Origin: Terracidiphilus sp.
GTDB taxonomy: Bacteria; Acidobacteriota; Terriglobia; Terriglobales; Acidobacteriaceae
Direction: 5' to 3'
DNA: 59,570 nt
Assembly (NCBI GenBank): GCA_035642355.1
Contig: DASQSP010000212.1
Span: forward strand, 1 to 59,570
Made by a program: the position numbers and the translations under genes. Shown piece by piece: positions 11,247-58,733 of the stretch; within the stretch, counting starts at the first letter, position 1, and each line of letters opens with the position of its first letter. The notes below the pieces were generated by a model. That model saw nothing but the letters and a program-made list of their open reading frames with translations. It did no database searches and was not told the origin of the DNA.

Positions 11247-11365
11247 GGAACCTCTGATCAAGTCGATGTTTTGAAAGGGCACGGCTTTAGCCGTGCCGTA
11301 AGTAGCGCAAATTTAACTGGGCTTTAGCCCCTGAGGGAATGCGCTGTGACTTAATCAGACCTTCC
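11247..11365. mobile_element. 119-bp MITE, IS5-like TIRs, carrying family-A REP core
   Basis: GGAACCTCTGATCAAGTC / GACTTAATCAGACCTTCC (15/18 inverted match), flanked by CTAA and TTAA. Internal GGCACGGCTTTAGCCGTGCC...GGGCTTTAGCCCC. Confidence 0.8.
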
Positions 11366-11521
11366 TTAATGGTCAGCTTCGAGCCCCGGTCTTCACATCC
11401 GGTCGCGGCTCGCGGAATTCGGCTCAGTTAAGGATGCCATGCCGGGCCGAATCGATGCACAACGGTGCGCTGGCTTATCCTGAGACTTCACCGATTCCCG
11501 CTCCCAAGGAGAACGCCCTCG

Positions 11522-12175
11522 ATGCCCAGCAAGCCCAAGGCGGCCAAACCCGCCAAGCCCAAAAAGCTGAAAGCCCCAAAAGCCAAGCCCGCCGCCGTTG
11601 CCGCGGCAAAGCTCATCAGCTCCGTCGTCGTCTACGACGGCAAGCTCTTCAAGGTGCGCCACGACAAGCTCGTCGAACCCGACGGCAAGCCCCAGGAGCG
11701 CGACGTCATCCGCCACAACGGCAGCGTCGTCATCCTCGCCCTCGACAGCTCCAAGAGCAGGAAGGATCCCTGGCTCGTCATCGAGCGCCAGTATCGCCAC
11801 GCCGCCAACCAGTATCTATGGGAGCTGCCCGCAGGCAAGCTGGATGCGGGCGAAGAAGCTATGGATGGCGCCAAACGCGAGCTCGAGGAAGAGACCGGCT
11901 ACCGCGCCAAAAAATGGAAGCCCCTGGTCGAGTACTACGCCAGCCCCGGCTTCCTCGGCGAATCCATGAAGGTGTTTTTGGCCGAGGGCCTCATCGCCGG
12001 TGACGCCCACCCCGAAGCGGACGAGCACATCGAGTTTCGCCTCGTGAAGCTCTCCGAAGTGCTCAAGATGATCGACAAGGGCGCCATCCTCGACGGCAAA
12101 ACCCTCACCACGGTGCTCCTCTACGCGCGCCTCATCGGCAAAAAATCCGCCAAGAAGAAGAACAAGAAAAAATAG
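11522..12175 (+). CDS. NUDIX hydrolase (ADP-ribose pyrophosphatase-like)
   Basis: ELPAGKLDAGEE...AKRELEEETG Nudix box. Confidence 0.93.
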   Translation: MPSKPKAAKPAKPKKLKAPKAKPAAVAAAKLISSVVVYDGKLFKVRHDKLVEPDGKPQERDVIRHNGSVVILALDSSKSRKDPWLVIERQYRHAANQYLWELPAGKLDAGEEAMDGAKRELEEETGYRAKKWKPLVEYYASPGFLGESMKVFLAEGLIAGDAHPEADEHIEFRLVKLSEVLKMIDKGAILDGKTLTTVLLYARLIGKKSAKKKNKKK

Positions 12176-12196
12176 CAGCACACGAGAGGCCAGCCC

Positions 12197-12308
12197 GGTG
12201 CCCCATCCATGCGCAGCATGGGTGGAAAACCACAAAAGCCGCATCGAGCAAACGCCGGGTGCCCCATCCATCGCGCGTCCTGTGCGCGATGGGTGAGAAA
12301 CCACGAAC
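12197..12308 (+). repeat. Two tandem family-B REP-like palindromes
   Basis: GGTGCCCCATCCAT...ATGGGTG...AAACCAC twice (12197-12236, 12257-12308). Confidence 0.85.
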
Positions 12309-12343
12309 CGCGTCAGGGTACAACCCGGAGCAGCTTTGTAACA

Positions 12344-12495
12344 GGGCACGAGTTTACTCGTGCCGTAAATGCCTGAAATTCAACCCCTGGGCTTCAGCCC
12401 CTGCTGAACTTTCCTAACCGGGCATGTGCTTTCCCGCAGCCTGTTCAGTCGTGCCGTATCTGTCGCAAAATGAAATGGGGTTTTAATCCCCAGGG
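12344..12495 (+). repeat. Family-A REP core plus a truncated second copy
   Basis: GGGCACGAGTTTACTCGTGCC...GGGCTTCAGCCCC, then TTCAGTCGTGCCG...GGGGTTTTAATCCCC. Confidence 0.8.
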
Positions 12496-12557
12496 ATCGG
12501 TTGTCGCGAACCGACGACCTACCCAAGCCCGCGAGGCGAGCCGTGCCGCACTGCCCC

Positions 12558-13190
12558 ATGAAGTTCCGTTACCTGCGCGGCCTGCTGCCCGCCCAGCCGC
12601 GCATTCTCGACATCGGCTGCGGCAACCACTCGCCGACGCTCACCCGCCGCTGGTTCCCGGACTGCACTTACTCCGGCGCGGACATCCAGCAGTACAACAA
12701 CAGCGAAGCCGACCTCGCCGCAATGGACGCCTTCTATCCCGTCGGCGCGGACGGCTCCGGCTACGACGCCATCCCCGGCAGCAGCTTCGACCTCGTGCTC
12801 CTCAATCACGTCGTCGAGCACATGGCCGACCCCGCCCCCATCGTGGCCGCGCTCTGCGCCAAGCTCGCGCCCGGCGGCTACATCTGGATCGCCTTCCCCT
12901 CGCTGCGCAGCCTCGCGCTGCCCCACTCCGACGACGAAACCCTCAACTTCTGCGACGACCCGACCCACATCCGCGTCCCCGATGTGCGCGAAGTCTCCAA
13001 CATCCTCCTCGCCCACGGCGTCGCCATCGTACACGCCGGCCGCTCGCGCGAAGGCCTGCTCACCACCCTCGGCGACATCGTCAAGCTGGCCAAACGCCTG
13101 GTGCGCCGCGCCTTCACCGGCCGCTTCTCCGGCCGGGGCATGTGGTACATCCTCGGCTTCGAGGATCACGTTCTGGGCCGCCGCCGCTAA
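12558..13190 (+). CDS. Class I SAM-dependent methyltransferase
   Basis: ILDIGCG motif I, FDLVLLNHVVEH, LAPGG. Confidence 0.9.
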   Translation: MKFRYLRGLLPAQPRILDIGCGNHSPTLTRRWFPDCTYSGADIQQYNNSEADLAAMDAFYPVGADGSGYDAIPGSSFDLVLLNHVVEHMADPAPIVAALCAKLAPGGYIWIAFPSLRSLALPHSDDETLNFCDDPTHIRVPDVREVSNILLAHGVAIVHAGRSREGLLTTLGDIVKLAKRLVRRAFTGRFSGRGMWYILGFEDHVLGRRR

Positions 13191-13431
13191 CTCTTTTCCG
13201 CACAAAAAAATCACACCGCAATTCCTGACTTAGAGTGCCCTCCAACCTGGAAAAATCAGGTACTTCGCCGGGCCCACCCTGGCTCGCCGTCTCCCCGCTT
13301 TTCATCCGATCAATCAATTCGCTCAAAAAACGCTCAACCTTTCGGGCGGCTATTTCGTCATAAACATTGGCGGCTCACCCTCCGTTCCGGTCGTGGGCCG
13401 CTCGAATTCAAACCGCAAGAAAGGCAAGCCT

Positions 13432-13662
13432 GTGGCTCAGTACAAAGGCAAAGTCAAGTGGTTCAATAATGCCAAGGGCTACGGATTCATCGGGCGCGAG
13501 GACGGCCCGGATGTGTTCGTCCATTACTCGGCAATTCAATTGGATGGTTACAAAACCCTGAAAGAGGGCGACGACGTCGAGTTCGACATCGTGGAGGGCC
13601 AGAAGGGCCCGCAAGCTGACGGCGTGGCGCGTCTGCGCGACGTCGCTCACACCGCAGCCTGA
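13432..13662 (+). CDS. cspA: Cold-shock protein
   Basis: [15 protein letters not shown] and [12 protein letters not shown] motifs; GTG start. Confidence 0.95.
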
Positions 13663-13876
13663 TCGCCCTGATCGCTTGTAACCCTGCGGCACGCGTAGCC
13701 GAAGTGTGCCTTCTGCTCTAACGCGCCCGTGTGTCTTCGACGGCAGCCCCCCACCGTCTGCCGCAGCGCGGAATACCAGGGTTGCGCGCGCCCCGCACAC
13801 AGGCCACGCGTTGGCCCCCAGGCGCGTCTTCTCTCCGCCCCGGCCTGCCCCATGACAGCACTGCCTCCGCATCGTA

Positions 13877-14055
13877 GTGTAGTGCGTCACGCAGATGCGC
13901 GTTTAACCGTTTAACGGTTTTTGAAGGGTGCGGGCTTTAGCCCGTACGTTAAGCCTGCAAATTCAACCGGGCTTTAGCCCCTGAGGAAATGCGGTCTGAC
14001 AAACCTTCAACATTCAGGGAGTGGAATGACGTATGTTATTTCCGACGCACTACAG
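13877..14055. mobile_element. 179-bp MITE, TA-flanked (IS630-like ends), carrying family-A REP core
   Basis: TA-GTGTAGTGCGTC ... GACGCACTACAG-TA (11/12 inverted match). Core GCGGGCTTTAGCCCGTAC...GGGCTTTAGCCCCTGAG at 13925-13986. Confidence 0.7.
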
Positions 14056-14097
14056 TAGATGCTGTTCGCAGACAGCCTTTATTGCGGAGACTCGCAT

Positions 14098-15840
14098 TTG
14101 GACAACCCCACCATCGCCCACCGGCTTTCTGAAACCGCCGACCTGATGGAGATCGACGGCGCCGACAGCTTCCGCATCCGCAGCTATCGCCGCGCCGCCG
14201 AAGCCGCCGAGCAAACCACCGTCGATCTTGTCGCCGCCGCTGCCGACACCGCGCGCCTGCTCGAGATTCCCGGCATCGGCAAAAGCATGGCCGCCCATCT
14301 CCAGGCCATCATCGCCACCGGCTCGCTATCGTCGCGCGATGAACTCGTCGCAAAATATGGCACCGGCATTCTCGACCTGCTCAAGCTGCCCGGCATGGGC
14401 CCCAAAACCATCGCGCTCTTCTGGTCCGCCGCGCAAATCTCTTCCATCGATCAGCTCGCCCAGGCCATTGAAGCCGGAGCGCTCGCCGGCCTGCCCCGCA
14501 TGGGCCCCAAGCAGCTCGACAAGCTGCGCAAAGGCATCGAGGACTACCGCCGCAGCGCCGGCCGTTTCCGCATCGACGAAGCCGAGGACGCCGCCAACCG
14601 CATCATCGCGTATCTGATGGCCTTCAACGGCATCGAGCGCGTCACCCCCGCCGGCAGCCTCCGCCGCGGCCGCGAGACCTGCGGCGATTTAGACCTGCTC
14701 GTCACCGGCCCCTGCTGCCGGCCCGAGCATACCGAAGCCGCGGTCAACTACATCGCCGCCTATCCCGGCATCCACAGCATCATCGCCAAGGGCGAAAACA
14801 AGATCAGCTTCTATCTCTCCAACAGCCTCCAGGTCGACGTGCGCCTGCTGCCCTCCGAGTCCTACGGCGCGGCCCTGCAATACTTCACCGGCTCCAAGGC
14901 GCATAATGTTTCGCTGCGCCAGCGCGCCCTCAAAATGGGCTACACCCTCAGCGAGTGGTCCCTCGCCCGCCTCGATGACAATTCAGTCGTGGCCGCCGCC
15001 ACCGAGGAAGAGATATACTCCGCCCTCGGCATGGACTGGATGCAGCCCGAGATGCGCGAAAACCTCGGCGAAATCGAGAGTGCCGCGCACCACGAGCTGC
15101 CGAAGCTCATCGAGATCGAAGACATTCGCGGCGACGTGCACATGCACACCACCGCCACCGACGGTCACAACTCCATCCGCGAGATGGCCGACGCCGCCCT
15201 CGCCCGCGGCTACCAGTACATCGCCATTACGGACCACTCCAAGAACCTGGCCATGACCAATGGTCTCGATGAGAAGCGCGCCCTCGAGCACATCAAGCGA
15301 ATCCGAGAGGTCGACGCCGAGATGGAAGGCCGCATCCGCATCTTCCCCGGCATCGAGGTCGACATCCTCGCCGACGGCGCGCTCGACCTCGACAACGAAG
15401 TCCTCGCGCAAATGGAAGTGGTCATCGCCAGCGTCCACACGCGCCTCGACCAGCCCCGCGACGAGATGACCGCGCGCGTCCTCCGCGCCCTCGAAAACCC
15501 CTACACGCGCATCCTCGGCCACCCCACCGGCCGCCTGCTACTGCGCCGCGAGCCCTTCGATCTCGACATCGGCCAGGTCCTGCGCCGCGCCGCCGAACTG
15601 GGCGTGGCCGTGGAGCATAACGCCGCACCCGAGCGCCTCGACCTGAGCGACCGCGACCTGCGCCTCGCCAAGGAAACCGGCTGCAAGATCGTCATCAACA
15701 CCGACGCCCACGACACCCGCCACCTGGCCAAAATGATCTACGGCATCCGCCAGCTCAAGCGCGCCTGGCTCGGCCCCGCCGACATCCTCAACACCAAAGG
15801 CCCGGGCGACTTCCTCGCCGCGCTGCGGCCGCGCCCCTGA
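14098..15840 (+). CDS. polX: DNA polymerase X / PHP exonuclease
   Basis: GSLRRG..TCGDLDLL, YFTGSKAHN, HMHT..TDG and DAH PHP motifs; TTG start after GGAGA. Confidence 0.95.
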   Translation: MDNPTIAHRLSETADLMEIDGADSFRIRSYRRAAEAAEQTTVDLVAAAADTARLLEIPGIGKSMAAHLQAIIATGSLSSRDELVAKYGTGILDLLKLPGMGPKTIALFWSAAQISSIDQLAQAIEAGALAGLPRMGPKQLDKLRKGIEDYRRSAGRFRIDEAEDAANRIIAYLMAFNGIERVTPAGSLRRGRETCGDLDLLVTGPCCRPEHTEAAVNYIAAYPGIHSIIAKGENKISFYLSNSLQVDVRLLPSESYGAALQYFTGSKAHNVSLRQRALKMGYTLSEWSLARLDDNSVVAAATEEEIYSALGMDWMQPEMRENLGEIESAAHHELPKLIEIEDIRGDVHMHTTATDGHNSIREMADAALARGYQYIAITDHSKNLAMTNGLDEKRALEHIKRIREVDAEMEGRIRIFPGIEVDILADGALDLDNEVLAQMEVVIASVHTRLDQPRDEMTARVLRALENPYTRILGHPTGRLLLRREPFDLDIGQVLRRAAELGVAVEHNAAPERLDLSDRDLRLAKETGCKIVINTDAHDTRHLAKMIYGIRQLKRAWLGPADILNTKGPGDFLAALRPRP

Positions 15841-15952
15841 CCGCGGAATTCGTTGCACTCAACGCCGCCCGTAGAAAAGATCCATCGACACCATCGCGTT
15901 GAAATCGCAGGATATTTCGGCGACGGAAACCGATTTCGGTCAAGACGATCTG

Positions 15953-15981
15953 TTGCACTAAGTGAACATTTGGTGCATACT
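15953..15981 (+). promoter_or_regulatory. Putative sigma70 promoter TTGCAC-17-CATACT
   Basis: Canonical spacing upstream of the hairpin leader of the NYN gene. Confidence 0.55.
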
Positions 15982-15987
15982 CAACTC

Positions 15988-16047
15988 AACCCACCTGCGG
16001 CGTGCCGCAGGCCCAGAGGCCGTTGCGCGCAAGCGTGGCGGCCTTTT
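15988..16047 (+). ncRNA. Candidate ~60-nt leader/small RNA ending in terminator
   Basis: CCTGCGG-cgtg-CCGCAGG hairpin, then AGGCCGTTGCGC-GCAA-GCGTGGCGGCCT-TTT. Confidence 0.5.
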
Positions 16048-16065
16048 GCATTTAGAATGCGGAAC

Positions 16066-16716: not shown

Positions 16717-16836
16717 AAATCGCCGAGCGGTAACCAGCCGCTTGCACTGGAAGATAGGCACTCGACAGTACGAAAGCCCCTATTTACCCGGATTCCCTCG
16801 CCGAGTAGAGCGCAACAGCGCTAAGATAAAAGCGCC

Positions 16837-19892: not shown

Positions 19893-19927
19893 GGGTGCCC
19901 CCGGTCCCTAGCTTTTGGGGACCGGGG
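19893..19927 (+). repeat. Family-B REP upstream of RAYT
   Basis: GGGTGCCCCCGGTCCC...GGGGACCGGGG hairpin. Confidence 0.85.
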
Positions 19928-19983: not shown

Positions 19984-20559
19984 ATGAAGGGCAAGCGCAT
20001 CCGTTACCAGCAGACCGGCGAATTCCACTTCCTCACCTTCAGTTGTTATCGACGTCGAGCCTACTTATCGGCACCTGCGGCCATGGAACTTTTCGAAGAC
20101 GCGCTGGAGCGCGTTCGCCTGCGTTATCTTTTTGCGGTGGCCGGCTACGTCGTCATGCCGGAGCATGTGCATCTTCTGGTCAACGAGCCCAGGCGAGCCC
20201 TTTTATCCCGGACCATCCAAGCCCTGAAGTTGTCAGTCTCGATGCGCAGCCGGGAAAGGCCCTTCTGGCAGGCCCACTATTATGACTTCAACATCTCTTC
20301 CCACGAGAAGTTTGTGGAGAAGCTGCGCTACATTCACCGCAACCCTGTGGCGCGCGGTTTAGTGACAAAGCCCGAAGACTGGGCGTGGTCGAGTTACCTC
20401 CACTATCAAACGGGCATGCGCGGAACCATTGAAATCGAATCCGAATGGACAGCCCGCGAGAGAGGCTGGCAACTGCCCGGCTGGATGCGCAATCACGAGC
20501 CCGACTCCCCTAAATCCCCGGTCTCCAAAGGCGAGAGACCGGGGGCACCCTCAACTTGA
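19984..20559 (+). mobile_element. REP-associated tyrosine transposase (RAYT, Y1 HUH)
   Basis: FLTFSCY, VVMPEHVHLL (HUH), FWQ..YYD, YIHRNPV, WAWSSY; flanked by inverted REPs. Confidence 0.93.
20516..20550 (-). repeat. Family-B REP overlapping RAYT 3' end
   Basis: Reverse complement GGGTGCCCCCGGTCTC...GAGACCGGGG. Confidence 0.85.
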
Positions 20560-20607: not shown

Positions 20608-21162
20608 ATGGCATTACGCCAAAATGGCATCGAAACATCGGGCAAGGTTAATTCACTGCAGCGCTTTGGCCGATCTGGGCACATGGTCCTCTACACCTTC
20701 ACTGCAAACGGCGTCACCGTTTACGGCAAGGCGACGGTTTCCTCAGCGTCGATGGAAAGCCTTCATGAATCAAGCATCCTCACTGTGAGGTTTCTATCTT
20801 CAAATCCCTCGATTAATCAACCTCTTGTATCCGAGCAGTCCCTATTGCAGATATGGGATATGATTTTAATTCCTATGCCGTTCCTGGGAATTTTAGGCGT
20901 GCTCTTTGTGATTCTTAACAGGCGTCGGCACTTGCTTTCGATGGGGGCGCCAGCCGTCGGCCTTGTAACGGAGTGTAATTTCAACGGACGTTCATTTTTG
21001 GTCAAATATGAGTTTGTTACTGATGCCCAGGTGACTATTAAGGGCGCGGGATGGTCCCAAGACTTACAAAAATCTGGTCAGCGACTTTGGATTCTCTATC
21101 TGTCGAAAAATCCCCGTAGAAACCGCCCTTACCCCTTCTCGGATTACAAATTGGAAGAGTGA
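20608..21162 (+). CDS. AT-rich DUF3592-like membrane protein, possibly 5'-truncated
   Basis: Two G..V...Y.F...Y..NP repeats separated by a TM; bracketed by 22-bp inverted repeats. Confidence 0.6.
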   Translation: MALRQNGIETSGKVNSLQRFGRSGHMVLYTFTANGVTVYGKATVSSASMESLHESSILTVRFLSSNPSINQPLVSEQSLLQIWDMILIPMPFLGILGVLFVILNRRRHLLSMGAPAVGLVTECNFNGRSFLVKYEFVTDAQVTIKGAGWSQDLQKSGQRLWILYLSKNPRRNRPYPFSDYKLEE

Positions 21163-21236: not shown

Positions 21237-21270
21237 GGGTGCCCCCGGTCCCTCGCCGTTGGGGACCGGG
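21237..21270 (+). repeat. Family-B REP
   Basis: GGGTGCCCCCGGTCCCTCGCCGTTGGGGACCGGGG. Confidence 0.85.
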
Positions 21271-21348
21271 GTTTTAAGACTCACTACGGCAGGTGCACGG
21301 GAAAGCAAAAACCAATTCCCTCTCAATCCTCGAAAACAGATTGAACTA

Positions 21349-30814: not shown

Positions 30815-31594
30815 TCACCCTCGGGATGACATGGCTTGAGTTGACGAAGCCAACGGCGCGGTGGGCTGGCTGGCTAGTTCGGCGACGGCGGTACGGAGGC
30901 GGGCGGTCAGCTCTTCGGTCTGGCGGAGGGTCATGCCCTTGGTTTGGATGGGTTCGCCGACTGCGAGGGTTACCGGGCAGGGATGGAAGTGGTGGGTGTG
31001 GATGGGCAGCAGGTCATAGACGCCGCTGAGGCCGATGGGGACGAGCGGGACCTGGGCGCGGATGGCAAGGAAGGCTGCGCCGGCCAGAAATTCGCGGAGT
31101 TCGCCGGTGTTGGTGCGGCCGCCCTCGGGGAAGACGAACAGCGGCATGCCGGCGCGGAGGGCGCGGGCGCCGGCGCCGAGGCTGGAGAGCGAGGCGTGGG
31201 GATTGTCGGTGTCAATGGGGAGCTGGCCGGAGCGGTTGAGATGCCAGCCGATGAAGGGCAGTCCCCAAAGCTGCTTGCGGGCCAGGATGCGGAACTGGAA
31301 CGGGAGGGTCGCAAAAATGACCGGCGTATCCATATAGGACGTGTGGTTGGAGGCGTAGACGGCGACGGGGTGTTGGCGGAGGTTGGCCGCGCCGCGCACG
31401 GTGAGGCGCGCACCGGAGAAGAAGACACAGCCGCGGGCCCATACGTGGGCGATGGCGTGCTGCACGCGTCCGGGCTTGTCAAACAAGGAAGACAGCAGGG
31501 AGAGCGTGCCGCAGAGGGCGGTCCAGAGCAGGAAGAACGGTGCCCGGAAGACGTTGGAGCGGCAGCGGGCGAGGAACGGGAGCGGCCGGGTCAT
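30815..31594 (-). CDS. plsC: 1-acyl-sn-glycerol-3-phosphate acyltransferase
   Basis: NHTSYMD and FPEGGR motifs. Confidence 0.92.
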   Translation of the reverse strand: MTRPLPFLARCRSNVFRAPFFLLWTALCGTLSLLSSLFDKPGRVQHAIAHVWARGCVFFSGARLTVRGAANLRQHPVAVYASNHTSYMDTPVIFATLPFQFRILARKQLWGLPFIGWHLNRSGQLPIDTDNPHASLSSLGAGARALRAGMPLFVFPEGGRTNTGELREFLAGAAFLAIRAQVPLVPIGLSGVYDLLPIHTHHFHPCPVTLAVGEPIQTKGMTLRQTEELTARLRTAVAELASQPTAPLASSTQAMSSRG

Positions 31595-33171
31595 GGTTTG
31601 TCCTCGGCGAGTAAAAACGCGCGGGCTTCTCCAACGAGGTAGACGGAGCCGGAGATGACGATGACCGCAGGGGTTCTCTCAGGGGCTAAAGCCCCTTTTT
31701 TATGGTGCGGGCTTGCGGCACGACTGAAGTCGTGCCCTGACGCGGGGGTCTGCGGCTCTTGTCCGGCTTGGGTGGCGCGTGCCATTACGAGGGCTTCTGC
31801 GACGGAGGCGGCGGCTTGCGCGGGTGTGCCGGTGGAGGCGGCGGCGGCGAGCAGCTCGGCCATTGGCGTGGCGCGAGGACTGGTGATGGGCGCGAAGACG
31901 ACGCGATCGAAGAGTGGGAAGAGTATCTGCGCCATTTCTGCGAGGGGCTTGTCGCGCAGGCAACTGAAGACCAGGGTGAGGGGTGTGCCTTCGGGCACGA
32001 GCTGACGCAGGCCGGCGCGGAGGGCCCATGCGCCGGCGGGATTGTGTGCGACGTCCAAAATCCACTGCGTGGAGGCTAACCCTTTGGAGGAGTGTGTTGT
32101 GATGCGTTCCAGGCGCGCGGGCCATTGCGTGTTGCGGACGCCTGCGGAGATGGAGGCGGGCGTGATGGGCAGATTGTGGCGCTCGGCGAGCTCGACGGCG
32201 GCAGCGATGGCGAGGGCGATGTTGCGGTGCTGGTGCGCGCCGTGGAGGGGTGAGTCGATTTCGATCTCTTCACCGAGAGCCGTGATGGTGTAGGGCGCCG
32301 GGGCTAAAGCCCCTTCATTCATTGGCGCCGTTGCGTACGGGCTGAAGCCCGTACCCTTCGCCGGAGTTGAAGCCCCTTCTTGTTTTTTTGCGAAGCTTTC
32401 GGCACGACTGAAGTCGTGCCCTGACACGGACGGCATGTACGGAACGGCGCTGAGGGCGCGGACGTTGAGCGCGAGGGCGATTTCGCCGATGGCGTGATTG
32501 GCCTCGGGGTGCTGGGGCAGGGTGATGAGGGTGCCGTTGGGGCGAAGGATTCCGGCTTTCTCGCGGGCGATGGCGGCGATGGTGGAGCCGAGCCATTCGG
32601 TGTGGTCGAGGGAGATGTCGGTGATGACGGAGAGCAGCGGATCGACGATGTTGGTGGCGTCGAGGCGGCCGCCCATGCCGACTTCGAGGACGGCGAAGTC
32701 GACTGGACCTGCTCCCGACGCGCCCTCGGCGAAGTGGAGGAAGGCCAGGGCGGTGAGGCATTCAAAGAAGCTGGGCAACTGGGCGAGCTTCCGATCCATG
32801 ACGAGTTGCTGGCCTGTGTCGTGGACGCGGAAGTAGAGCGCGGCGAATTGCTCGTCGGAGATTTCGACGCCGCTGACGCGGATGCGCTCATTGGGGCGGG
32901 TAAGGTGCGGCGAGGTGTAGAGGCCGGTGCGCAGCCCCGCCGCGGCGGACAGGCCCGACTCATTCAGAATGGAGGCGAGCGTGGCGGCAGTGGAGCCTTT
33001 GCCGTTGGTTCCGGCGATGAGGACCGCGGGGAATTTGCGATGCGGGTTGCCGAGGGCTTTGAGCAGGACGCCGATCTCGTCGAGAGAGAACTTGCGCCGC
33101 GGCTGGCCTGGCTGGGTGTGCAGCTCAGGGGTCATGGCGGCGAGCTGGTCGATGGCGGCGGCGTAGGACAT
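31591..33171 (-). CDS. folC: Folylpolyglutamate/dihydrofolate synthase with two in-frame REP insertions
   Basis: AGTNGKGS, LYTSPHL, EVGMGGRLDATN, DVAHNP, SGSVYLVGE. Confidence 0.95.
   Translation of the reverse strand: MSYAAAIDQLAAMTPELHTQPGQPRRKFSLDEIGVLLKALGNPHRKFPAVLIAGTNGKGSTAATLASILNESGLSAAAGLRTGLYTSPHLTRPNERIRVSGVEISDEQFAALYFRVHDTGQQLVMDRKLAQLPSFFECLTALAFLHFAEGASGAGPVDFAVLEVGMGGRLDATNIVDPLLSVITDISLDHTEWLGSTIAAIAREKAGILRPNGTLITLPQHPEANHAIGEIALALNVRALSAVPYMPSVSGHDFSRAESFAKKQEGASTPAKGTGFSPYATAPMNEGALAPAPYTITALGEEIEIDSPLHGAHQHRNIALAIAAAVELAERHNLPITPASISAGVRNTQWPARLERITTHSSKGLASTQWILDVAHNPAGAWALRAGLRQLVPEGTPLTLVFSCLRDKPLAEMAQILFPLFDRVVFAPITSPRATPMAELLAAAASTGTPAQAAASVAEALVMARATQAGQEPQTPASGHDFSRAASPHHKKGALAPERTPAVIVISGSVYLVGEARAFLLAEDKP
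31678..31740 (-). repeat. Family-A REP core in frame in folC
   Basis: TCAGGGCACGACTTCAGTCGTGCC...GGGGCTTTAGCCCCTGAG encodes SGHDFSRAASPHHKKGALAPE. Confidence 0.92.
32299..32424 (-). repeat. Two tandem family-A REP cores in frame in folC
   Basis: Encodes SGHDFSRAESFAKKQEGASTPAKGTGFSPYATAPMNEGALAP. Confidence 0.92.
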
Positions 33172-33256
33172 GAAGACTTCAGTATAGAAGGCAGGGATTG
33201 GCCGCAACGAGAGCGCAAAACACATCGGGCCTCTTCCACGCGCGCGGAAGAGGCCC

Positions 33257-41065: not shown

Positions 41066-41317
41066 CGAGTTCACAGTTCTTAGTTCGCAGTTCACAGTGC
41101 GATCAGTTGCGAGCTACGAACTGTGAACCAAGGAAGCTCTGATTCAGCCGATCAAAGACTCCGCAGGGGCTAAAGCCCCTCTCATTTTGACGACTCATAC
41201 GGCACGACTGAAGTCGTGCCCTGTTACAAAGCGGCCTTGTTCAGAGGTTCTCTACGAACTGTGAACCAAGAACTGTGAACTAAGAACTACGAACTGTGAA
41301 TTAACAACTGAGAACTG
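41066..41317. repeat. Inverted heptamer array (AGTTCAC / GAACTGT) interrupted by MITE
   Basis: Period-7 arms between gnd and zwf. Confidence 0.85.
41132..41251. mobile_element. 120-bp MITE, IS5-like TIRs, carrying family-A REP core (reverse orientation)
   Basis: GGAAGCTCTGA ... TCAGAGGTTCT ends resemble the 11247 element. Core CAGGGGCTAAAGCCCC...GGCACGACTGAAGTCGTGCC. Confidence 0.72.
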
Positions 41318-44745: not shown

Positions 44746-45417
44746 CTACTCCCGCACCACCTTCACCAGAATCCCATCCGGCAGCTCGCCCTCAATCAGG
44801 TGCACCACGCCGTTCTTCACCAGCCCCTCAAAAACCTGCCGCTGCGGCCTCGCAGGTGAGCTGGGTGCAGGTGAGCCGGGTGCCCCACCTTCGCCGTCCG
44901 CCGCCAGCGGACGGTTAAGGTGGGACGGCCCTGTCGGCGCACCACTCAGGCCGGGCCTCTTCCCCATCCCCCGGTCCATGGCTTCGTTGGCCAGCCGGTC
45001 GGCTTCCTTGTTGCCGCCGCGCAGGGTGTGGCCCATCTGGAACTTCTCCAGGCGCGCGGCCTCGCGCCTGGCCTCTTCCCACAGCGGCTTGAGGCCGGGG
45101 CTGTTGACCTTGTAGCGGCCCTTCATCTGGTTGACCATCAGCTCGGAGTCCGAGATGACCTTGAGGTGGCTGACGTGGTTGGCGTTGGCCCACTTGAGCA
45201 CGGCCAGCAGGCCGGCATACTCGGCATAGTTATTGGTCTGCTTGCCCAGAAACTCGCTCAGCCGCGCCACCACGCGGCCGTTGGGGTCCTCCACCACCGC
45301 GCCAAAGCCCGCCGGCCCCGGATTGCCGCGCGAGCCGCCGTCACAGTGGGCCGTAAACCAGCCGCCGCTCTTCGCTTTGCCGCCCGCTTCCATCTCGCCA
45401 AATAATGTGCTGTTCAT
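44746..45417 (-). CDS. rnhA: Ribonuclease HI family protein with REP-derived linker
   Basis: DGGSRGNPG, TNNYAEY, SDSEL, NKEADRLAN. Confidence 0.9.
   Translation of the reverse strand: MNSTLFGEMEAGGKAKSGGWFTAHCDGGSRGNPGPAGFGAVVEDPNGRVVARLSEFLGKQTNNYAEYAGLLAVLKWANANHVSHLKVISDSELMVNQMKGRYKVNSPGLKPLWEEARREAARLEKFQMGHTLRGGNKEADRLANEAMDRGMGKRPGLSGAPTGPSHLNRPLAADGEGGAPGSPAPSSPARPQRQVFEGLVKNGVVHLIEGELPDGILVKVVRE
44878..44925 (+). repeat. Family-B REP in frame in RNase H gene
   Basis: GGGTGCCCCACCTT-CCGTCCGC/GCGGACGG-AAGGTGGGA hairpin; encodes SHLNRPLAADGEGGAP on the minus strand. Confidence 0.78.
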
Positions 45418-50078: not shown

Positions 50079-50153
50079 GCTCGCAGAACAGGTTGCGCGA
50101 AGGCCCTCTGCGAAGGTGGAGGGCCTCAGACTGCCAACAAAGTAAAGGTCTAT

Positions 50154-50235
50154 CCCTCAGGGGCTAAAGCCGCGTTGAATCTTATGGACGCAGGTATATC
50201 GACGCCGGATTTTTCGACACGGGAAAGCGCGAATG
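50154..50235. repeat. Degenerate REP fragments (family-A arm and family-B tail)
   Basis: CCTCAGGGGCTAAAGCC and GACACGGGAAAGCGCGAAT. Confidence 0.5.
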
Positions 50236-53003: not shown

Positions 53004-53045
53004 GCTGTTTGTATTATGCGGGGTCCGACGCGGGCATCGTGAGGA

Positions 53046-53086
53046 TCGTGCTTTCCCAGGTCTCAGAAGCGAGACCTGGGGCACCC
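53046..53086 (-). repeat. Family-B REP between aroF and tyrA
   Basis: Reverse complement GGGTGCCCCAGGTCTC...GAGACCTGGGAAAGCACG. Confidence 0.85.
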
Positions 53087-53139: not shown

Positions 53140-54156
53140 CTACAGCGCTCTGCCCACCGCCGCGGCGATGACGCGCAGCTCTGTCATCAGCTTATCGAAC
53201 TGGTCAAGGTACAAGGTCTGCGCCGCGTCCGATGCGGCCTTGTCGGCGTTGGGGTGCACCTCGACGAGGATCGCGTCTGCGCCCGCGGCCACCGCGGCCT
53301 TGGCCATCGGCGCCACCATGTCGCGGTGGCCGGTGCCGTGCGAAGGGTCGGCCACGATGGGCAGGTGCGAGAGCTTCTTCACGACCGGGATCGCGGAGAT
53401 GTCCATGGTGTTGCGCGTGGCGGTCTCATAGGTGCGGATGCCGCGCTCGCAGAGGATGATGTTGTAGTTGCCGCCGGAGAGGATGTATTCGCTCGAGAGC
53501 AGCATCTCCTCAATGCTGGCGGCGATGCCGCGCTTGAGCAGCACGGGTTTTTCGACCTGGCCCAGCTCGCGCAGCAGGTTGAAGTTCTGCATGTTGCGCG
53601 CGCCCACCTGGAAGAGATCGACAAATTGCAGCATGGGCTCGATCTGCGCGATCTCCATCACTTCGCTGACGACGAGAAGCCCGTGGGCGTCGGCGGCTTC
53701 GCGCATCAGTTCGAGGCCGGGAATGCCCATGCCCTGAAATGCGTAAGGCGAGCTGCGCGGTTTGAAAGCTCCGCCGCGCAGAAACGCTCCGCCCGCCGCT
53801 TTGACGCGCGCGGCGGTCTCGAATATCTGGTCTTTGTCTTCGATGGAGCATGGCCCCGCCATGGCGACGACCTGCGTGCCGCCGACCTTGACGCCGTTGC
53901 GGAATTCGACAACCGTGCCCTCGGGCCGGAAGCCGCGCCCGGCCAGCTTGTACGGCGCGCTGATGCGGTGCACATGCTCGACGCCCGGCAACACTTCGAA
54001 TTTGCTCAGGTCCACGGCGGACGTGGGCCCCACGCCGGCCAGAATGGTCTGGCTCGCGCCGGTGGTGCGGTGAACTCCCACGCCAGCTTCCGTCATCGCT
54101 TCGATCACGGCGTCAATCTGTTCTTCGCTGGCCTTCTCCTGCATGGCTACGATCAT
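53140..54156 (-). CDS. aroF: DAHP synthase (type I beta)
   Basis: AGPCSIE, KPRSSPY.FQG, GARNMQN, DPSH. Confidence 0.96.
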   Translation of the reverse strand: MIVAMQEKASEEQIDAVIEAMTEAGVGVHRTTGASQTILAGVGPTSAVDLSKFEVLPGVEHVHRISAPYKLAGRGFRPEGTVVEFRNGVKVGGTQVVAMAGPCSIEDKDQIFETAARVKAAGGAFLRGGAFKPRSSPYAFQGMGIPGLELMREAADAHGLLVVSEVMEIAQIEPMLQFVDLFQVGARNMQNFNLLRELGQVEKPVLLKRGIAASIEEMLLSSEYILSGGNYNIILCERGIRTYETATRNTMDISAIPVVKKLSHLPIVADPSHGTGHRDMVAPMAKAAVAAGADAILVEVHPNADKAASDAAQTLYLDQFDKLMTELRVIAAAVGRAL

Positions 54157-54500
54157 TGCTTGTTCCCTGTCTCCGGCGCCTGTGCGCCTGTGCCTTTGCC
54201 CGATTGCTCAGCGGCAGCCTGGGCGTTCCTCTCCGATGCCAACTCGTTCCTCTGCAGCGCCCGCATCACGTCGACAATGCGCTCGTAGATATGCACCAGC
54301 TCGATGTCCGGCAGTGGGCCCTGGTTGTGGGCGCGCACATTGGCGAAGATGATTTTTTCGCGGGCCGGCTCATAGACCGGCAGCGAGGTCTGCACCTTGA
54401 GGTGACCGATCATCAGCGCGGCACTGGCCCGCTCGTTGAGCAGCGCAACGAGCTTCCGGTCCAGCACATCGATTTCGGCTCGCAATTCTTCCAGCGTCAT
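54153..54500 (-). CDS. Chorismate mutase (AroQ type)
   Basis: LR.EID.LD..LV.LLNER, YEPARE. Confidence 0.9.
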   Translation of the reverse strand: MTLEELRAEIDVLDRKLVALLNERASAALMIGHLKVQTSLPVYEPAREKIIFANVRAHNQGPLPDIELVHIYERIVDVMRALQRNELASERNAQAAAEQSGKGTGAQAPETGNKQ

Positions 54501-54531
54501 TCGACTCCTCGGGTTGAAAGCTGCGATCTCG

Positions 54532-54652
54532 GGAAGTAGGTCAGTTTGAAACCGTTTTGAAAGGGCATGACTTCAGTCGTGCCGTATGCGTCGCAAAATG
54601 AGATGAGGCTTTAGCCACTGAGGGATGGGTTGTCACAAACTGACCTACTACC
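54532..54652. mobile_element. 121-bp MITE with 17-bp TIRs and 8-bp target duplication, carrying family-A REP core
   Basis: GGAAGTAGGTCAGTTTG / CAAACTGACCTACTACC (16/17), flanked by CGATCTCG and CTATCTCG. Confidence 0.88.
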
Positions 54653-54684
54653 CTATCTCGGGATACATCGACTCTGGTTTCGCT

Positions 54685-55467
54685 CTACCGGGTCAGCGCC
54701 GCCGCAGGCTGGCGCAGACCCCTGATAAATCGGGCCACCGCGCCGGGCGCTGCTTCGGGAGTCGATTTCTCGATCAGCTCCACGATTGCGCTGCCGATCA
54801 CCGCCGCATCGGCGAACTCCGCCACCTGGGCGACGTGTTCCGCGTTGGAGATGCCGAACCCCACGGCCACCGGCAGCGAAGTCCATCGCCGTATACGGGC
54901 GACCAGCGACGCGGCATCCGCGGTCATGCTCTGCTGCTTGCCGGTGATGCCGGTGCGCGAGATGGCGTAGACAAATCCCTTGCTGTGCGCGGCGATGGCC
55001 TGCAGCCGATCATCGGGGCTGGTGGGCGCGGCCAGAAAGATGGGCGCAAGATTCACGCGGGCCATTTCTGCCAGATACTCGCCCGCCTCTTCCACAATAA
55101 TGTCGGTCACCAGCACGCCATCGGCACCGGCAGCGGCTGCATCGTCTGCAAACTTGCGCAGGCCGTAGCGCAGGATGGGATTGAAGTAGCTGAAGATGAC
55201 GAGGCCGGCTGCGGGCCGCGCGGCGCGAATCTCGGCAGCGAGCGCGAGCACATCTTTGAGGCGCGTACCTTTGGACACAGCACGCTCGCTGGCGCGCTGA
55301 ATCACGGGACCGTCGGCCAGCGGATCGCTGAAGGGTACGCCGAGCTCGATCACATCCGCGCCCGCATCGATGGCCTCAAGCGCGATCGAGCGCGTGGCTT
55401 CGAGCGAGGGGTCGCCGGCGGTGAGATACACCACCAGGCCCGGTTTGTGCTGGAATTCGATCGCCAT
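54685..55467 (-). CDS. trpA: Tryptophan synthase alpha
   Basis: ELGVPFSDPLADGPVIQ, GITG, VGFGIS. Confidence 0.98.
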   Translation of the reverse strand: MAIEFQHKPGLVVYLTAGDPSLEATRSIALEAIDAGADVIELGVPFSDPLADGPVIQRASERAVSKGTRLKDVLALAAEIRAARPAAGLVIFSYFNPILRYGLRKFADDAAAAGADGVLVTDIIVEEAGEYLAEMARVNLAPIFLAAPTSPDDRLQAIAAHSKGFVYAISRTGITGKQQSMTADAASLVARIRRWTSLPVAVGFGISNAEHVAQVAEFADAAVIGSAIVELIEKSTPEAAPGAVARFIRGLRQPAAALTR

Positions 55468-55481
55468 CGGAGTTCTTCGGA

Positions 55482-56699
55482 TCACGCTCCCCGGAGGTTG
55501 AGCTCGTCGGCGAGGATGCCCATATCCTTGTCGCCGCGCCCGGAGAGGTTGACTACAAGTATGTCATGCGCGGCCATCGTCGGCGCCATGCGCAGGGCCT
55601 CGGCGACGGCGTGCGCGCTCTCGAGCGCGGGCAATATGCCTTCAGTACGCGCGAGCTTGACGACGGCCGCAAGCGCGGCGGCATCGTCCTGCGCGGTGTA
55701 CTCGGCGCGGCCGGAGTCGTGCAGCGCGGCGTGCTCCGGGCCGATGGAAGCGTAGTCGAGACCCGCCGAAACCGAATGCGTGTTGGCGATCTGGCCGTTC
55801 TCATCCTGCAGAACGTAAGAGAACGTGCCTTGCAGCACGCCGGGTTCTCCGCCGTGGAAACGCGCCGCATGCTGGCCGAGCGCGGTGCCGCAGCCGCCCG
55901 CCTCCACGCCGATGAGCCGCACCTGCTTGTCCGGGATGAACTCGTAGAAAGCGCCGATGGCGTTCGAGCCGCCGCCCACGCAAGCGACCACTGCGTGGGG
56001 CAGCCTTCCTTCCTTCTCCAAAATCTGCTCTTTGATCTCGCGGCTGATGACGCGCTGGAAGTCGCGCACCATGGTTGGATAGGGATGCGCGCCCAGCGCC
56101 GAGCCGAGGATGTAGAAGGTGGAACGGACGTTGGTGACCCAGTCGCGCATGGCCTCGCTGATGGCGTCTTTCAGCGTCTTCGAGCCGGACGACACGCTGC
56201 GCACTTCCGAGCCCAGCAGGCGCATGCGCAGCACGTTCAGATCCTGGCGGGCCATGTCCACTTCGCCCATGTAGACGATGCACTCCATGCCGAGCAGCGC
56301 GCAGACTGTGGCGGTGGCCACGCCGTGCTGGCCGGCGCCGGTCTCCGCGATGATGCGCTTTTTGCCCATGCGTTTGGCCAGCAGCGCCTGGCCGAGAGAG
56401 TTGTTGATCTTGTGCGCGCCGGTGTGCAGCAGGTCTTCGCGCTTGAGATAAATTTTTGCCCCGCCCAATTCTTCACTAAGGCGCTTAGCGAAGTAGAGCG
56501 GCGTGGGACGGCCGGCAAAGTTGTGCAGCAGGTCGGCAAGCTCGGCCTGAAAGGCCGCATCGGCCTGCGCTTCGGCATAGGCGTGCTCCAGCTCAAGCAG
56601 AGCGGCCATCAGCGTCTCCGGCACATAGCGGCCGCCGTAGACGCCGAACCGCCCGGGACGCGACTCCGACGGAGCCGATGGAAGAATGACCGATGCCAT
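55482..56699 (-). CDS. trpB: Tryptophan synthase beta
   Basis: [30 protein letters not shown]. Confidence 0.99.
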
Positions 56700-56958
56700 G
56701 GAGCCCTCCTGCACCTGCGCCTGCGCGCGAAATGGGGAACCCTTCAGTGTACAGGGAAGGCGTGCGGCGGGCTGGCCGGGTTAGGTAGCATTCATGCGGT
56801 GGGCGGGCTGAATGTTGATCGACCAGTAACTGTCGAATAGCGGGTTAGCCGCCCGCAACTCGTGAATGGAGCCCGAATAGGCAACCGATACAGTGCATGG
56901 GCAGGCGATACGCGTGAAGGAGGTATACTCTTGCTGCGTCACTCCCTACAAGAGGTGC

Positions 56959-57372
56959 ATGATGAGGAGATTCGTCGTTATCGGCGTAATGCTTGTCTGT
57001 CTTTGTTCAATACATGGTCAAAAGACTCGGCTCGGGCAAACGCCGCCAACACTAGCCACTGTCCATCTACACATTTCCGCATCGCATCTCCGGCTCAACT
57101 GTAGCGGCAGCAGCATTGGCTCCGCCGGGCCTGGCGTCGAATGTGGTTACGGGCTCTATGTAGATGCGATTCTGAATGGCAAGAAGATTGAGCTATGGGG
57201 CGATTCGAAAATTGGGAAACAACGATGGGCACTCGTTGCGCCGGGCGATTACACAGCGCAGCTCACGAGTGACGAACACAACGCCGATCAATCTGTGGTT
57301 AGCCAAAACTATCGACTCCTTCTTCCTGACGGCACCACCTGGTCATGCCAGTTAAGCGGCATCATGGAATAG
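56959..57372 (+). CDS. Hypothetical secreted protein (AT-rich insert)
   Basis: GAGG RBS, signal peptide, antisense to the trp operon. Confidence 0.65.
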   Translation: MMRRFVVIGVMLVCLCSIHGQKTRLGQTPPTLATVHLHISASHLRLNCSGSSIGSAGPGVECGYGLYVDAILNGKKIELWGDSKIGKQRWALVAPGDYTAQLTSDEHNADQSVVSQNYRLLLPDGTTWSCQLSGIME

Positions 57373-57624
57373 CTTCGAAACATTGTGAACGCCTGAGATT
57401 GCGATCAACGAAAACTCAGAGGATTCCGGCAACGCCATTTACTACCGAAAGCGTCATGATCGACCACATTTGAGGGACCTACGCCGGACTAAGCTTTTGC
57501 GCATTCGGGGTTGTTTGTCCCCGATCCGGAAATAGCTCACGAGTAAACACTCTGGAAGTGGAAGGTCCAATTGTAGCGGCAAATGGGCCAGCTGGCCCCT
57601 AAGGAAATGCGGACGGCGACGGTT

Positions 57625-57924
57625 TCAGGCCGCCTTGTTCACGCGCACGCTCACGCGCAGGCCGGCGGCGGTGAGCATGTTCACCAGCATGTCGATGCTG
57701 AAGAGATTGATTTTGCCGCGCATGAGGTTGGAGATGCGCGGCTGCGAGACGCCGAACGCTTCTGCGGCTGCAGTTGGGCTGAGGCCCTCGCGCTCGATGT
57801 GGCGCTTGAGCGCGAGCATGAGAGACGAACGTAGTTTGAGGTTCGCCGCCTCCGTCGGAGATTTCTCGATAGCGTCCCACACGCTTGCGTGGCGCGTGTT
57901 CGGCTTACGCGTAAACGAGGGCAC
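57625..57924 (-). CDS. Orphan HigA-like XRE (HTH_37) protein
   Basis: SVWDAI..SPTEAANLKLRS, GVSQPRISNL.RGKI..FSID.L. Confidence 0.88.
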   Translation of the reverse strand: MPSFTRKPNTRHASVWDAIEKSPTEAANLKLRSSLMLALKRHIEREGLSPTAAAEAFGVSQPRISNLMRGKINLFSIDMLVNMLTAAGLRVSVRVNKAA

Positions 57925-57962
57925 ATTCAGAATTATTTAGAACTTTATATAAATCGAATGCG

Positions 57963-58733
57963 CTATTCGCTCTCGGCGCGGGCGTTGGCGATGAAGGCGC
58001 GCACCTTGGCGGGGTCTTTGCGGCCGGGCGCGGCTTCCACACCGCTGACGACATCGACACCCCAGGGACGCAGTGTGGCAATGGCCTCCGCCACGTTTTC
58101 CGGGTTGAGGCCGCCGGCGGCGATCATCTTCGCGTTACCGCGAAAGAGGGTTTGCGAGGCGCTGGCCCAGTCGAAGGCGATGCCGGTGCCGCCGACGGCG
58201 GTTGCGGTGCGCGAGTCGATGAGGATGCCGTCTATATTTGTGTCAGCGGCCAGTGCGGCGGCTTGCTGTGCGGCGTCCGCGCCGAAGTGAACCACGCTCA
58301 GAATGCGCAGCGCTCGTCCGAACTGCGCGCCGAACTGAGCGCGGAGTTCGGCGGGCAGCTTATTGATCCGGGAAGTAAATAGTGTTGTGCTTTCCCACCC
58401 ATCGCGCATAGAACGCGCGATGGGTAGGGCACCCAAGTCGCGGTATTTAATTGCCGGATCTATAGGCGCGGCACCGGAGTGAAGCTGCACGCCGGTGAGG
58501 CCGGCGACGCGGACGGCCGCTGCAATTTCATCGAGAGACGCGTCGACGAAGACGCCAATTTTCTCAATCTGCGCAGGCAGGTGCGGGGTGATGGCTGCGA
58601 CCTGATCAGCCTTTACGCGGCGCGGACTGGGCGCGAAGACGAAACCAACCGCATCCGCTCCCGCGTCGGCCGCAAGCTCGGCGTCAGCGAGAGAGGTATT
58701 GCCGCAAATTTTGATCCAGAGAGGCATAAGCAT
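57963..58733 (-). CDS. trpF: Phosphoribosylanthranilate isomerase with 34-aa in-frame insertion
   Basis: KICG.T, GFVF..SPR, VQLH, GGTG..FDW, AGGLNPENV, DVVSGVE..PG.KD. Confidence 0.96.
   Translation of the reverse strand: MLMPLWIKICGNTSLADAELAADAGADAVGFVFAPSPRRVKADQVAAITPHLPAQIEKIGVFVDASLDEIAAAVRVAGLTGVQLHSGAAPIDPAIKYRDLGALPIARSMRDGWESTTLFTSRINKLPAELRAQFGAQFGRALRILSVVHFGADAAQQAAALAADTNIDGILIDSRTATAVGGTGIAFDWASASQTLFRGNAKMIAAGGLNPENVAEAIATLRPWGVDVVSGVEAAPGRKDPAKVRAFIANARAESE
58361..58464. mobile_element. TA-flanked MITE (IS630-like ends) carrying family-B REP, in frame in trpF
   Basis: TATTGATCCGGGAAGTAAAT / ATTTAATTGCCGGATCTATA (17/20 inverted match); net 102 bp. Confidence 0.88.

Follow-up and report, generated by a model that had tools for sequence, protein, structure and literature searches.

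The window analysed here is the whole stretch of 59,570 nt on contig DASQSP010000212.1 (forward strand) of Terracidiphilus sp. assembly GCA_035642355.1, a metagenome bin that is 97% complete and comprises 258 contigs. It contains five MITEs, each built around a core, the term used here for a REP hairpin unit of type A or B; a third type is termed hairpin C. By their ends the elements are labelled T1 (T1a and T1b; IS5-type), T2 and T4 (IS630-type) and T3 (IS1-type). The T1a element (11247..11365, + strand, 119 bp, A core at 11276-11332) starts directly after a stop codon; near-identical copies are present at other genome sites, and its ends resemble IS5 left ends. The T1b element (41132..41251, - strand, 120 bp, A core at 41164-41222) lies within a 7-bp tandem array, and its core spacer groups with the IS1-type family. 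The T2 element (13877..14055, + strand, 179 bp, A core at 13925-13982) has TA on both sides. The T3 element (54532..54652, + strand, 121 bp, A core at 54562-54619) has trpA on one side and a chorismate mutase gene on the other. The T4 element (58363..58462, - strand) encloses a B core at 58393-58434. The first-pass annotation had reported A cores in the first four of these elements, all of which were found where it placed them, and its size of 119-121 bp for three elements agrees with the measured 119 (11247), 120 (41132) and 121 bp (54532). The B-core element that it delimited as 58361-58464 is present as well; its first TA belongs to the duplicated target site and not to the element, which therefore spans 58363-58462, or 100 bp plus the duplicated TA. 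Typical targets are 4-bp YTAR-type sites for IS5, a duplicated TA for IS630 and an 8-9-bp duplication for IS1. The flank duplications in the window are imperfect: the 8-bp duplication claimed at 54532 exists with one mismatch (7/8), and the matches are 3/4 at 11247 and 2/4 at 41132, the latter in the 7-bp tandem array.

Cores without wrappers and partial elements were found in the same window. A RAYT gene of the B-core type (19984..20559, + strand, 191 aa; PF01797; NF047646 105 bits, cut-off 80 bits) has a B core on its 5' side (19893..19927, + strand), and a second, inverted B core (20516..20550, - strand) overlaps its 3' end. The earlier mention of naked cores and a RAYT was thus correct in both parts, the RAYT being flanked by B cores and not by A cores. 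Further naked B cores lie at 21237..21271 (+ strand) and, as a tandem pair, at 12198..12295 (+ strand); a naked variant (44878..44924, + strand) has its loop interrupted by a short, GC-rich insert that resembles a palindrome, and one more B core (53052..53086, - strand) has no matching end pair. A partial T7 MITE with its own A core (12333..12443, + strand; IS5/IS1182-like end at 12443) interrupts the loop of a second A core. Its insertion target follows at 12444..12523 (+ strand, by eye): a decayed MITE of the IS1 type (T3), of which this is the right half. A small hairpin (50101-50126) is followed directly by a single MITE end of the IS1182 type (T9) that includes half an A core (50127..50190, + strand, by eye). 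No match in the window exceeded an Rfam gathering score.

Three insertions are located in frame within two genes. The folC gene (31591..33225, - strand; TIGR01499, 544 aa) has two in-frame REP insertions, a naked A core at 31680..31738 (- strand) and a naked A core with an extra long hairpin at 32298..32421 (- strand); the latter accounts for about 40 codons that are missing from 5/5 relatives, so that for naked cores in folC, too, empty sites exist in 5/5. The trpF gene for phosphoribosylanthranilate isomerase (57963..58733, - strand) contains the T4 element as 34 extra codons. This insertion is missing from all five relatives in a protein comparison, which decided the matter, the DNA alignment of the site being uninformative; the empty orthologous site that the first-pass annotation had suggested looking for is thus found in trpF. 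A candidate empty allele at 13877 in one public run, which contains the stretch and may be the source of the assembly itself, with a weak joint, a depth of 2.6 and 24 letters on one side, was not counted.

Genome-wide, 68/170 A cores lie within end pairs of the same family, as against 2/600 random positions and 0/510 shuffled flanks, and 72/310 B cores lie within matching end pairs, as against 1/930 shuffles; cores occur in MITEs above chance. There are at least eight end types around core A and at least five around core B. The elements are 100-254 bp long, with terminal inverted repeats of 14-25 nt. Three of the four end types described at first are multicopy (24 intact copies of T1, 19 of T3 and 22 of T4); T2 is a single copy in this assembly. 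Target duplications are exact in 14/24 T1 elements (shuffle mean 4.4) and have at most two mismatches in 10/19 T3 elements (shuffle mean 0.8); in the T5 and T7 families they are insignificant (4/13, p 0.06; 2/10, p 0.62). The same wrappers are present in other species. An assembly of 258 contigs and end motifs defined from the elements themselves, on which the counts of wrapped cores depend, could suggest that the inverted repeats arose by chance close to abundant palindromes, or that they are artefacts of the metagenome bin. This explanation can be dismissed with near certainty, being refuted by the controls, the target duplications, the wrappers in other species, the autonomous insertion sequences (ISs) described below and the empty trpF site. 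The five elements are confirmed, and the pattern is larger than first described.

An independent check on the end motifs was provided by a core-blind de novo search. It returned 21 clusters, of which 8 were set aside as 7-bp arrays or palindrome pairs; the other 13 are IS-ended, and a hairpin core is present in 13/13. Among end pairs at most 400 bp long, 140/141 hold a core motif, a figure that is an upper bound because the motif list had 6-mers. The exception, the one coreless pair that a search for such pairs yielded, is longer (219 bp). The word cargo, by which the first-pass annotation described the core, perhaps undersells a unit that occupies the middle of the element and is hardly ever absent.

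The same observations raise the possibility, to which we give distinctly less than even odds, that the hairpin is the working part of the element: one of 100-140 bp would transpose well only if a hairpin at its centre, either extruded or in complex with a bending protein, brings its ends together, and REPs would be the commonest ready-made hairpins. Such a role is compatible with the capture explanation developed below, and IHF sites within Correia MITEs offer a loose precedent in the cited part of PMC10969869. Besides the near-constant core motif, centring points to it. The median asymmetry of 12 A and B families is 0.127 compared with 0.243 under a uniform null (p 0.028), with two families dropped in which the core was missed by the pattern and with a null model of our choice. 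However, T8 (arms of 46 and 149) and T2 (48 and 73) are off-centre, T8 being multicopy nonetheless, and the mode of element formation could also give centring. Hairpin C is in line with a working hairpin too: it is nearly invariant in 27/41 genomes of the genus and is centred between varying IS630-type ends, by score, in 25/27 loci, one per genome (shuffles 0-2), the remaining two loci having one IS630-type end each by eye. In these 27 loci there was no naked copy of hairpin C, Y1 gene or transposase match; a RAYT origin therefore may not cover all wrappers.

The four end types distinguished at first match transposase-bearing ISs of the genus, namely IS5, IS630 (two types) and an IS1-like group. 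The families named from the sequence, IS5, IS630 and IS1, are borne out for IS5 and IS630, and the IS1-like score lies just below the NCBIfam cut-off; the element at 58361 had been taken for a fourth end type, and its TIR is matched by an IS630-type partner, as for 13877. T1 ends lead to IS5 transposases (NF033581, 328-347 bits, cut-off 140; 21 distinct elements). T2 ends were found on 1,169-bp elements in genomes G084 and G109, and the G084 copy encodes an IS630 transposase. In the IS630 profile NF033545 (cut-off 100) the T2 partner scores 277 bits and the T4 partner 217 bits, and the exact identity between T4 and its IS630 end is limited to the first 11 nt. The T3 partner scores 92 and 55 bits in NF033558, below the cut-off of 100, and 27.4 and 23.7 in PF03400 (cut-off 24.1); the matching IS1-like elements have an exact 8-bp duplication in 2/3 complete copies. 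The T5 partner reaches 165 bits against a cut-off of 270, T8 has an IS481 partner and T9 an IS1182 partner, each above cut-off, and the T7 ends equal those of locus L079 over 16 nt. Autonomous IS ends were matched for T1, T2, T3, T4, T5, T7, T8, T9, T16 and C2; T6, T10, T11, T12 and T15 had no partner among the fetched loci. A 16/16 match of the T12 end near the genome's IS630 was rejected, as it belongs to another short element and not to an IS end. Long T3-ended elements in the genome carry passenger genes, with no transposase and no clear duplication. Most partner transposases come from relatives, and the partners of T1, T3, T5 and T7 were absent from searches of the fragmented assembly; any present activity is therefore conjectural.

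The arms resemble the matching IS ends as far as the core. In some families the similarity of the arms to IS ends extends past nt 20 (C2, p<0.001; T16, p 0.008; T7, p 0.018; T9, p 0.04; T8, p 0.014 and 0.04), and 7/15 other comparisons gave p >0.1, with one more at 0.10. A suspected T1-arm remnant in T2 was no longer supported when the first 9 nt, which the two have in common, were left out (p 0.20). In T8 and T9, one end is of the left type and the other of the right type. Both arms of T1, in both subfamilies, are closer to IS5 left than to right ends in 16-18/21 relatives. The latter asymmetry, together with the right-type sequence at each end of the sole coreless pair, would be expected from fold-back copying, in which an IS end beside a REP hairpin is duplicated, inverted, beyond the hairpin, and core centring would then be automatic. 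We consider this origin improbable: it fails for T8 and T9, the arms are not inverted copies past the terminal 16-24 nt, the IS5 relatives are kin and not independent, and the true T1 parent may have two ends of similar sequence, as do the IS5 relatives L335 and L352.

Both cores are associated with RAYT genes. Core A forms inverted doublets on both sides of RAYT genes in 11/12 fetched loci of relatives, where the A-type RAYTs score 111-116 bits in NF047646. The A-type RAYT is present in 26/60 relatives and was not found in the Terracidiphilus assembly, where the best matches have 25-32% identity. B cores adjoin 4/5 Y1 genes of the genome, as an inverted pair around the RAYT at 19984-20559 and next to three more Y1 genes; the fifth is an IS200-like fragment. 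The window cores and the RAYT-flanking cores fit in one alignment. The foot of core A is not GTAG or GTGG, the preceding letters being other and variable, and core B, judged by eye, has no such foot either. The wrapped share of cores has no clear trend with RAYT presence in three genomes (28/72 here, 5/14 in G018 and 1/14 in G013).

Each wrapper family bears mainly a single core variant, whereas naked cores are for the most part unlike one another. Spacer clusters follow the wrappers (12/19 in T5, 9/10 in T1a and 11/23 in T3), and the spacers of 26 unwrapped cores are near-unique. Four intact elements, that at 41132 among them, have a spacer typical of the wrapper of another IS family, and left-right chimeric elements combine T5 with T1 and T6 with T1. 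Such elements would be expected if cores moved by RAYT or recombination into or between existing MITEs, the wrappers being mere landing sites. This is quite improbable as a general account, since no short empty wrapper was found, the core position is fixed per family and the spacers mostly follow the wrappers. Judging by these spacers, exchange of cores between wrappers looks real but minor.

A role at the RNA level was considered as well, in which the host would keep hairpin insertions as 3'-end terminators or stabilisers and purge coreless MITEs. REPs and MITEs have been reported 3' of genes, acting on transcripts (cited sections of PMC3733652 and PMC3184786). B cores favour convergent gene pairs (38/160 naked cores compared with 248/1505 background gaps), and the predicted RNA folds are strong, at -47 to -106 kcal/mol as computed without a shuffle control. 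A-core wrappers, by contrast, are not enriched between convergent genes (1/24, 1/19, 3/13 and 2/10, with a crude gene caller). With in-frame copies within trpF and folC, a window without an Rfam match and the centring left unexplained, we think retention for RNA action unlikely.

We propose that these miniature transposons consist of two IS ends around a REP unit and arose by RAYT capture, loss of the IS body and copying in trans, a reading to which we assign a probability of about 0.7. A RAYT would put a REP inside an insertion sequence, which would then lose its transposase gene, and the IS family's own transposase would copy the element in trans. The spacers suggest one capture per wrapper family, followed by clonal spread through the DDE transposase. 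In vitro, TnpA(REP) of E. coli cuts REP pairs and recombines them, according to the cited part of PMC3333891. As REP cores are both RAYT-flanking and IS-wrapped, they are likely to spread by two separate routes. The two-tier mobility suggested by the first-pass annotation, with HUH-spread palindromes in DDE-moved MITEs, is supported to this extent, mobilisation being read from the anatomy; for the RAYT tier, both cores are RAYT-associated, the window's own RAYT partnering core B only. None of the refuting conditions named in that annotation was borne out when checked. REP loops may also be targets of some of those same IS families: the autonomous ISs L081, L371 and L379 sit within A-core loops that have been duplicated. 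Elements would therefore nest, feeding new wrappers and occasional core swaps. Finally, and least certainly, the elements that spread may be those with a centred hairpin, which would ease the meeting of two ends separated by only about 100 bp. Several observations run against the capture model, among them the A-type RAYT and the partner ISs missed in searches of the assembly, the end types with no partner, the T3 and T5 partners below cut-off, hairpin C and the wrapped share of cores. In addition, no IS-with-core intermediate was found (20/21 IS5 relatives contain no core, the one match being mid-gene, and a scan of other IS loci for internal cores gave flanking matches only), and plain internal deletion does not predict that both T1 arms are IS5-left-like. 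The broader proposition that very short bacterial MITEs need a hairpin at their centre as a hinge between their ends, that the RAYT-REP system provides it, that REP insertion turns any DDE family's IS ends into a spreading MITE and that REPs, carried in such MITEs, outlive the loss of their RAYT is put forward as a rather doubtful extension.

MITEs and REPs are usually treated as separate classes with unrelated enzymes, and the interiors of type II MITEs are mostly of unexplained origin. Here about a dozen unrelated gene-less transposon families share one build, IS ends around a hairpin that is mostly a REP; for almost all MITE families the interior is traceable, and it is common to IS5, IS630, IS1-like, IS481 and IS1182 ends. 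Capture would give REPs a route by which to persist after RAYT loss. The named pairs of MITE and transposase allow a direct test of whether the MITE interior matters for transposition, and repeat catalogues are liable to merge or split these families wrongly.

Type II MITEs, as outlined in the cited part of PMC10969869, are alike in being shorter than 500 bp, in IS similarity mostly at the ends, in target duplications and in presumed movement in trans, whereas the interior here is centred and has an identifiable outside source common to unrelated families. The REP/BIME/REPIN-RAYT systems, in the cited portions of PMC3333891, PMC6006769 and PMC3733652, share hairpin doublets with a variable linker, inverted around a class 2-type Y1 HUH gene, and also many dispersed copies and in-frame insertion in genes; the present cores differ in that no canonical GTAG foot was seen, in that a large share of the copies is enclosed by DDE-type ends and in the A-type RAYT not being found in the same assembly. 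REP-targeting IS1397 and IS621 (PMC3184786) and stem-loop-targeting IS1272 (PMC5678879) are alike in target choice as far as the cited text goes: T7- and T8-type elements enter and duplicate REP loops (loop siting by eye), and T9-type elements lie between the copies of a duplicated hairpin. Here, in contrast to these ISs, non-autonomous derivatives bear the REP that they target. The acidobacterial TIRtrons and TIRYTs, in the part of PMC3733652 that was compared, likewise combine tyrosine transposases with inverted non-GTAG repeats and some dispersed families, while that part does not describe the repeats within DDE-type MITEs; their comparison with cores A and B is by description only. A literature search of mostly open papers, supplements excluded, found none describing one REP in several MITE families. 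The nearest system found is QMITE2 of Coxiella burnetii, which in the cited sections of PMC5896051 is a MITE with terminal repeats, 7-11-nt direct repeats and a REP inside, and which also has REP-only short forms and serves as a target of IS1111. It differs in forming one family, in its REP being read as a truncated MITE and in a main text without a RAYT. Unlike QMITE2, the present case comprises two RAYT-linked REP types, and the ends that enclose them are of 13 or more types and belong to several IS families.

All five elements that the first-pass annotation described in the window are present: two with T1 ends (11247 and 41132), and one each with T2 (13877), T3 (54532) and T4 ends (58361). 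The last one in fact starts at 58363, the TA before it being the duplicated target, and at 11247, 41132 and 54532 the two copies of the target do not match fully. The T2 type occurs once in the assembly, of which the window is contig C212 (2.95 Mb, 258 contigs, 63% GC, completeness rated 97%).

Core A spans about 58 nt and is a doublet in which a variable spacer separates a long hairpin from a short one; core B has one hairpin, preceded by a conserved GC-rich foot. Counted with end motifs drawn from the elements themselves, 68 of the 170 A cores in the genome are enclosed by two ends of one type (T1 24, T3 19, T5 13, T7 10, T6 1, T2 1), versus 2/600 and 0/510 in controls; another 47 show a single end or a mixed pair, and none of these six types adjoins the remaining 55. 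Some of these 55 belong to further wrappers, T8 (254 bp), T9 (119 bp) and T10, and a looser pattern yields ten T6 pairs. With motifs obtained likewise, 72/310 B cores are wrapped by five TA-flanked types (T11 23, T4 22, T12 19, T16 5, T15 3), versus 1/930 in shuffles, 78 are partial and 160 naked. A search blind to the cores returned 21 clusters; eight were set aside as 7-bp arrays or palindrome pairs, and all 13 clusters of IS-ended elements (12 families) contain A, B or a further hairpin, C. By a permissive motif list, a core motif is present in all but one of the 141 end pairs no longer than 400 bp; the exception (C193:79-297) is 219 bp long and resembles an IS5 right end on either side. 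An RNA role of core A for the host is not favoured, as this core shows no excess between convergent genes under a crude gene caller and Rfam gave no match in the window.

Between genes, the window (704-742, 3416-3440, 9456-9605, 41072-41316) and other contigs contain tandem arrays of 7-bp period, many of them paired in inverse orientation around a short spacer or a gene. In many A and B copies a short GC-rich perfect palindrome fills or replaces the hairpin loop, giving elements about 9 bp longer (window 44878; elsewhere, for example, C132:4218, C148:21775 and C240:1589).

Several end types could be assigned to insertion sequences. T1 ends match IS5 elements. T2 ends, whose pattern occurs in 3/120 relatives, match over about 30 nt 1,169-bp elements in genomes G084 and G109, the G084 copy encoding an IS630 transposase. 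T3 ends enclose elements of 2.6-3.4 kb that encode an IS1-like transposase and passenger genes; exact 8-bp duplications flank two of the three. T4 has its first 11 nt in common with an IS630. T8 matches IS481 and T9 matches IS1182, both above cut-off; T7 partners pass the IS5 model, and T5 partners score best on IS1182, below cut-off. No partner of T6, T10, T11, T12 or T15 was found among the fetched loci. Family searches of the assembly gave one region with an IS5-type transposase, three with an IS630-type transposase and no match to DUF772; four contig ends carry an IS5-like start, which shows that insertion sequences are partly unassembled here. Family target rules are YTAR, TA, 8-9 bp and 6 bp. 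Target duplications exceed shuffles for T1 and T3; T5 and T7, whose targets are highly uniform, show no clear excess.

Passenger genes also lie between T3 ends, in some cases together with a transposase and in others without one (C185:17140-18588, C255:17830-19051; fetched loci L054, L059, L288, L289, L292); they include genes for a ClpP-like protease and a P63C-domain protein. A duplicated 20-bp palindrome or A hairpin borders T9 elements (C211:22011-22555, C25:3-161, C71:14708-14826), and the same holds for their IS1182 relative L067.

The second enzyme link is to Y1 transposases. The window RAYT (19984-20559) is flanked by B cores, which adjoin four Y1 genes of the genome; a 184-aa ORF between it and the next B core (20608-21162) has no Pfam match. 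An A-associated RAYT clade was found in 26/60 relatives, with inverted A doublets on either side of the gene at 11 of 12 fetched loci, and the three members tested all pass NF047646; a search of the present assembly found no A-type RAYT.

In trpF the T4 element accounts for 34 extra codons, with TA duplicated at the site, and 5/5 relatives lack it, an empty site of the kind that the first-pass annotation proposed to look for. Naked A cores lie in frame in folC and are absent there from 5/5 relatives, so the core has also moved without IS ends. TrpF (57963-58733) and FolC (31591-33225), both housekeeping enzymes, contain inserts of about 25-45 residues that derive from repeats and are in frame; 24/160 naked B cores lie inside genes (crude gene caller).

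Among the 149/170 A cores scored, spacer type mostly tracks the wrapper and unwrapped cores are mostly unique, which fits a single capture per wrapper family, with copies thereafter made by the DDE transposase. Four intact elements have a spacer of another IS family, so some exchange occurs; one of them is 41132, which falls into the same spacer group as 54532. No insertion sequence with an internal core was found among the IS loci; capture and current activity are both inferred. T7 and T8 ends lie mostly in A-core loops (read by eye), as do their autonomous relatives, and one such nest is in the window (12333-12523). The long hairpin of T7 itself mostly carries a paired double change beside the T7-targeted loop (by eye; window 12343), which might reflect avoidance of self-insertion. 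A T5 end and the beginning of an A core interrupt an IS200-like fragment (C106:7349-7660).

Hairpin C is a palindrome with an 11-bp stem and A and T tracts; it hardly varies in 27/41 genomes of the genus, reaches 45 copies per genome, and has copies in the present genome at C8:19902, C38:8381, C116:7337, C124:2238, C184:282, C219:2978 and C247:1100. At 25 of the 27 fetched loci (L261-L287) it marks the centre of MITEs of about 112 bp, whose arms diverge and whose IS630-type ends come in many variants; one arm tracks the genome's own IS630 left end as far as the hairpin. Neither a naked copy nor a Y1 gene was seen in the 27 loci. Looping is difficult for DNA as short as about 100 bp, and a bolder reading of these sequences is that the core could be a working part, a hinge, in transposition. 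Hairpin C is its sharpest case, and cores lie nearer the middle than under a uniform null (p 0.028, 12 families, two dropped), but T8 and T2 are off-centre.

The T1 element core has a match in 23/24 genomes of the genus and 0/16 of another family, and T1 wrappers are present in other species. A wider scan gave at least 123 core loci, nearly all acidobacterial among the 80 listed. Strong inverted repeats, including new end types, flank 18 of its 127 cores, versus 0-4 with swapped flanks.

The two-tier arrangement behind the proposed mobility, in which palindromes propagated by HUH enzymes would become cargo of MITEs, is real and well supported, its anatomy and both enzyme links being read from sequence. 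Each separate part is already known. MITEs and REPs are handled in reviews as distinct classes (PMC3184786, PMC10969869). Atypical repeats are reported to accompany Y1 genes of Acidobacteria (PMC3733652, PMC6006769), TnpA(REP) biochemistry (PMC3333891) and stem-loop targeting (PMC5678879) have been described, and the consulted passages of PMC11602168 have nothing on shared interiors. Our search found no paper on one REP within several MITE families, a kind of repeat that supplements could list. QMITE2 of Coxiella, a target of IS1111, likewise holds a REP within a MITE (PMC5896051).
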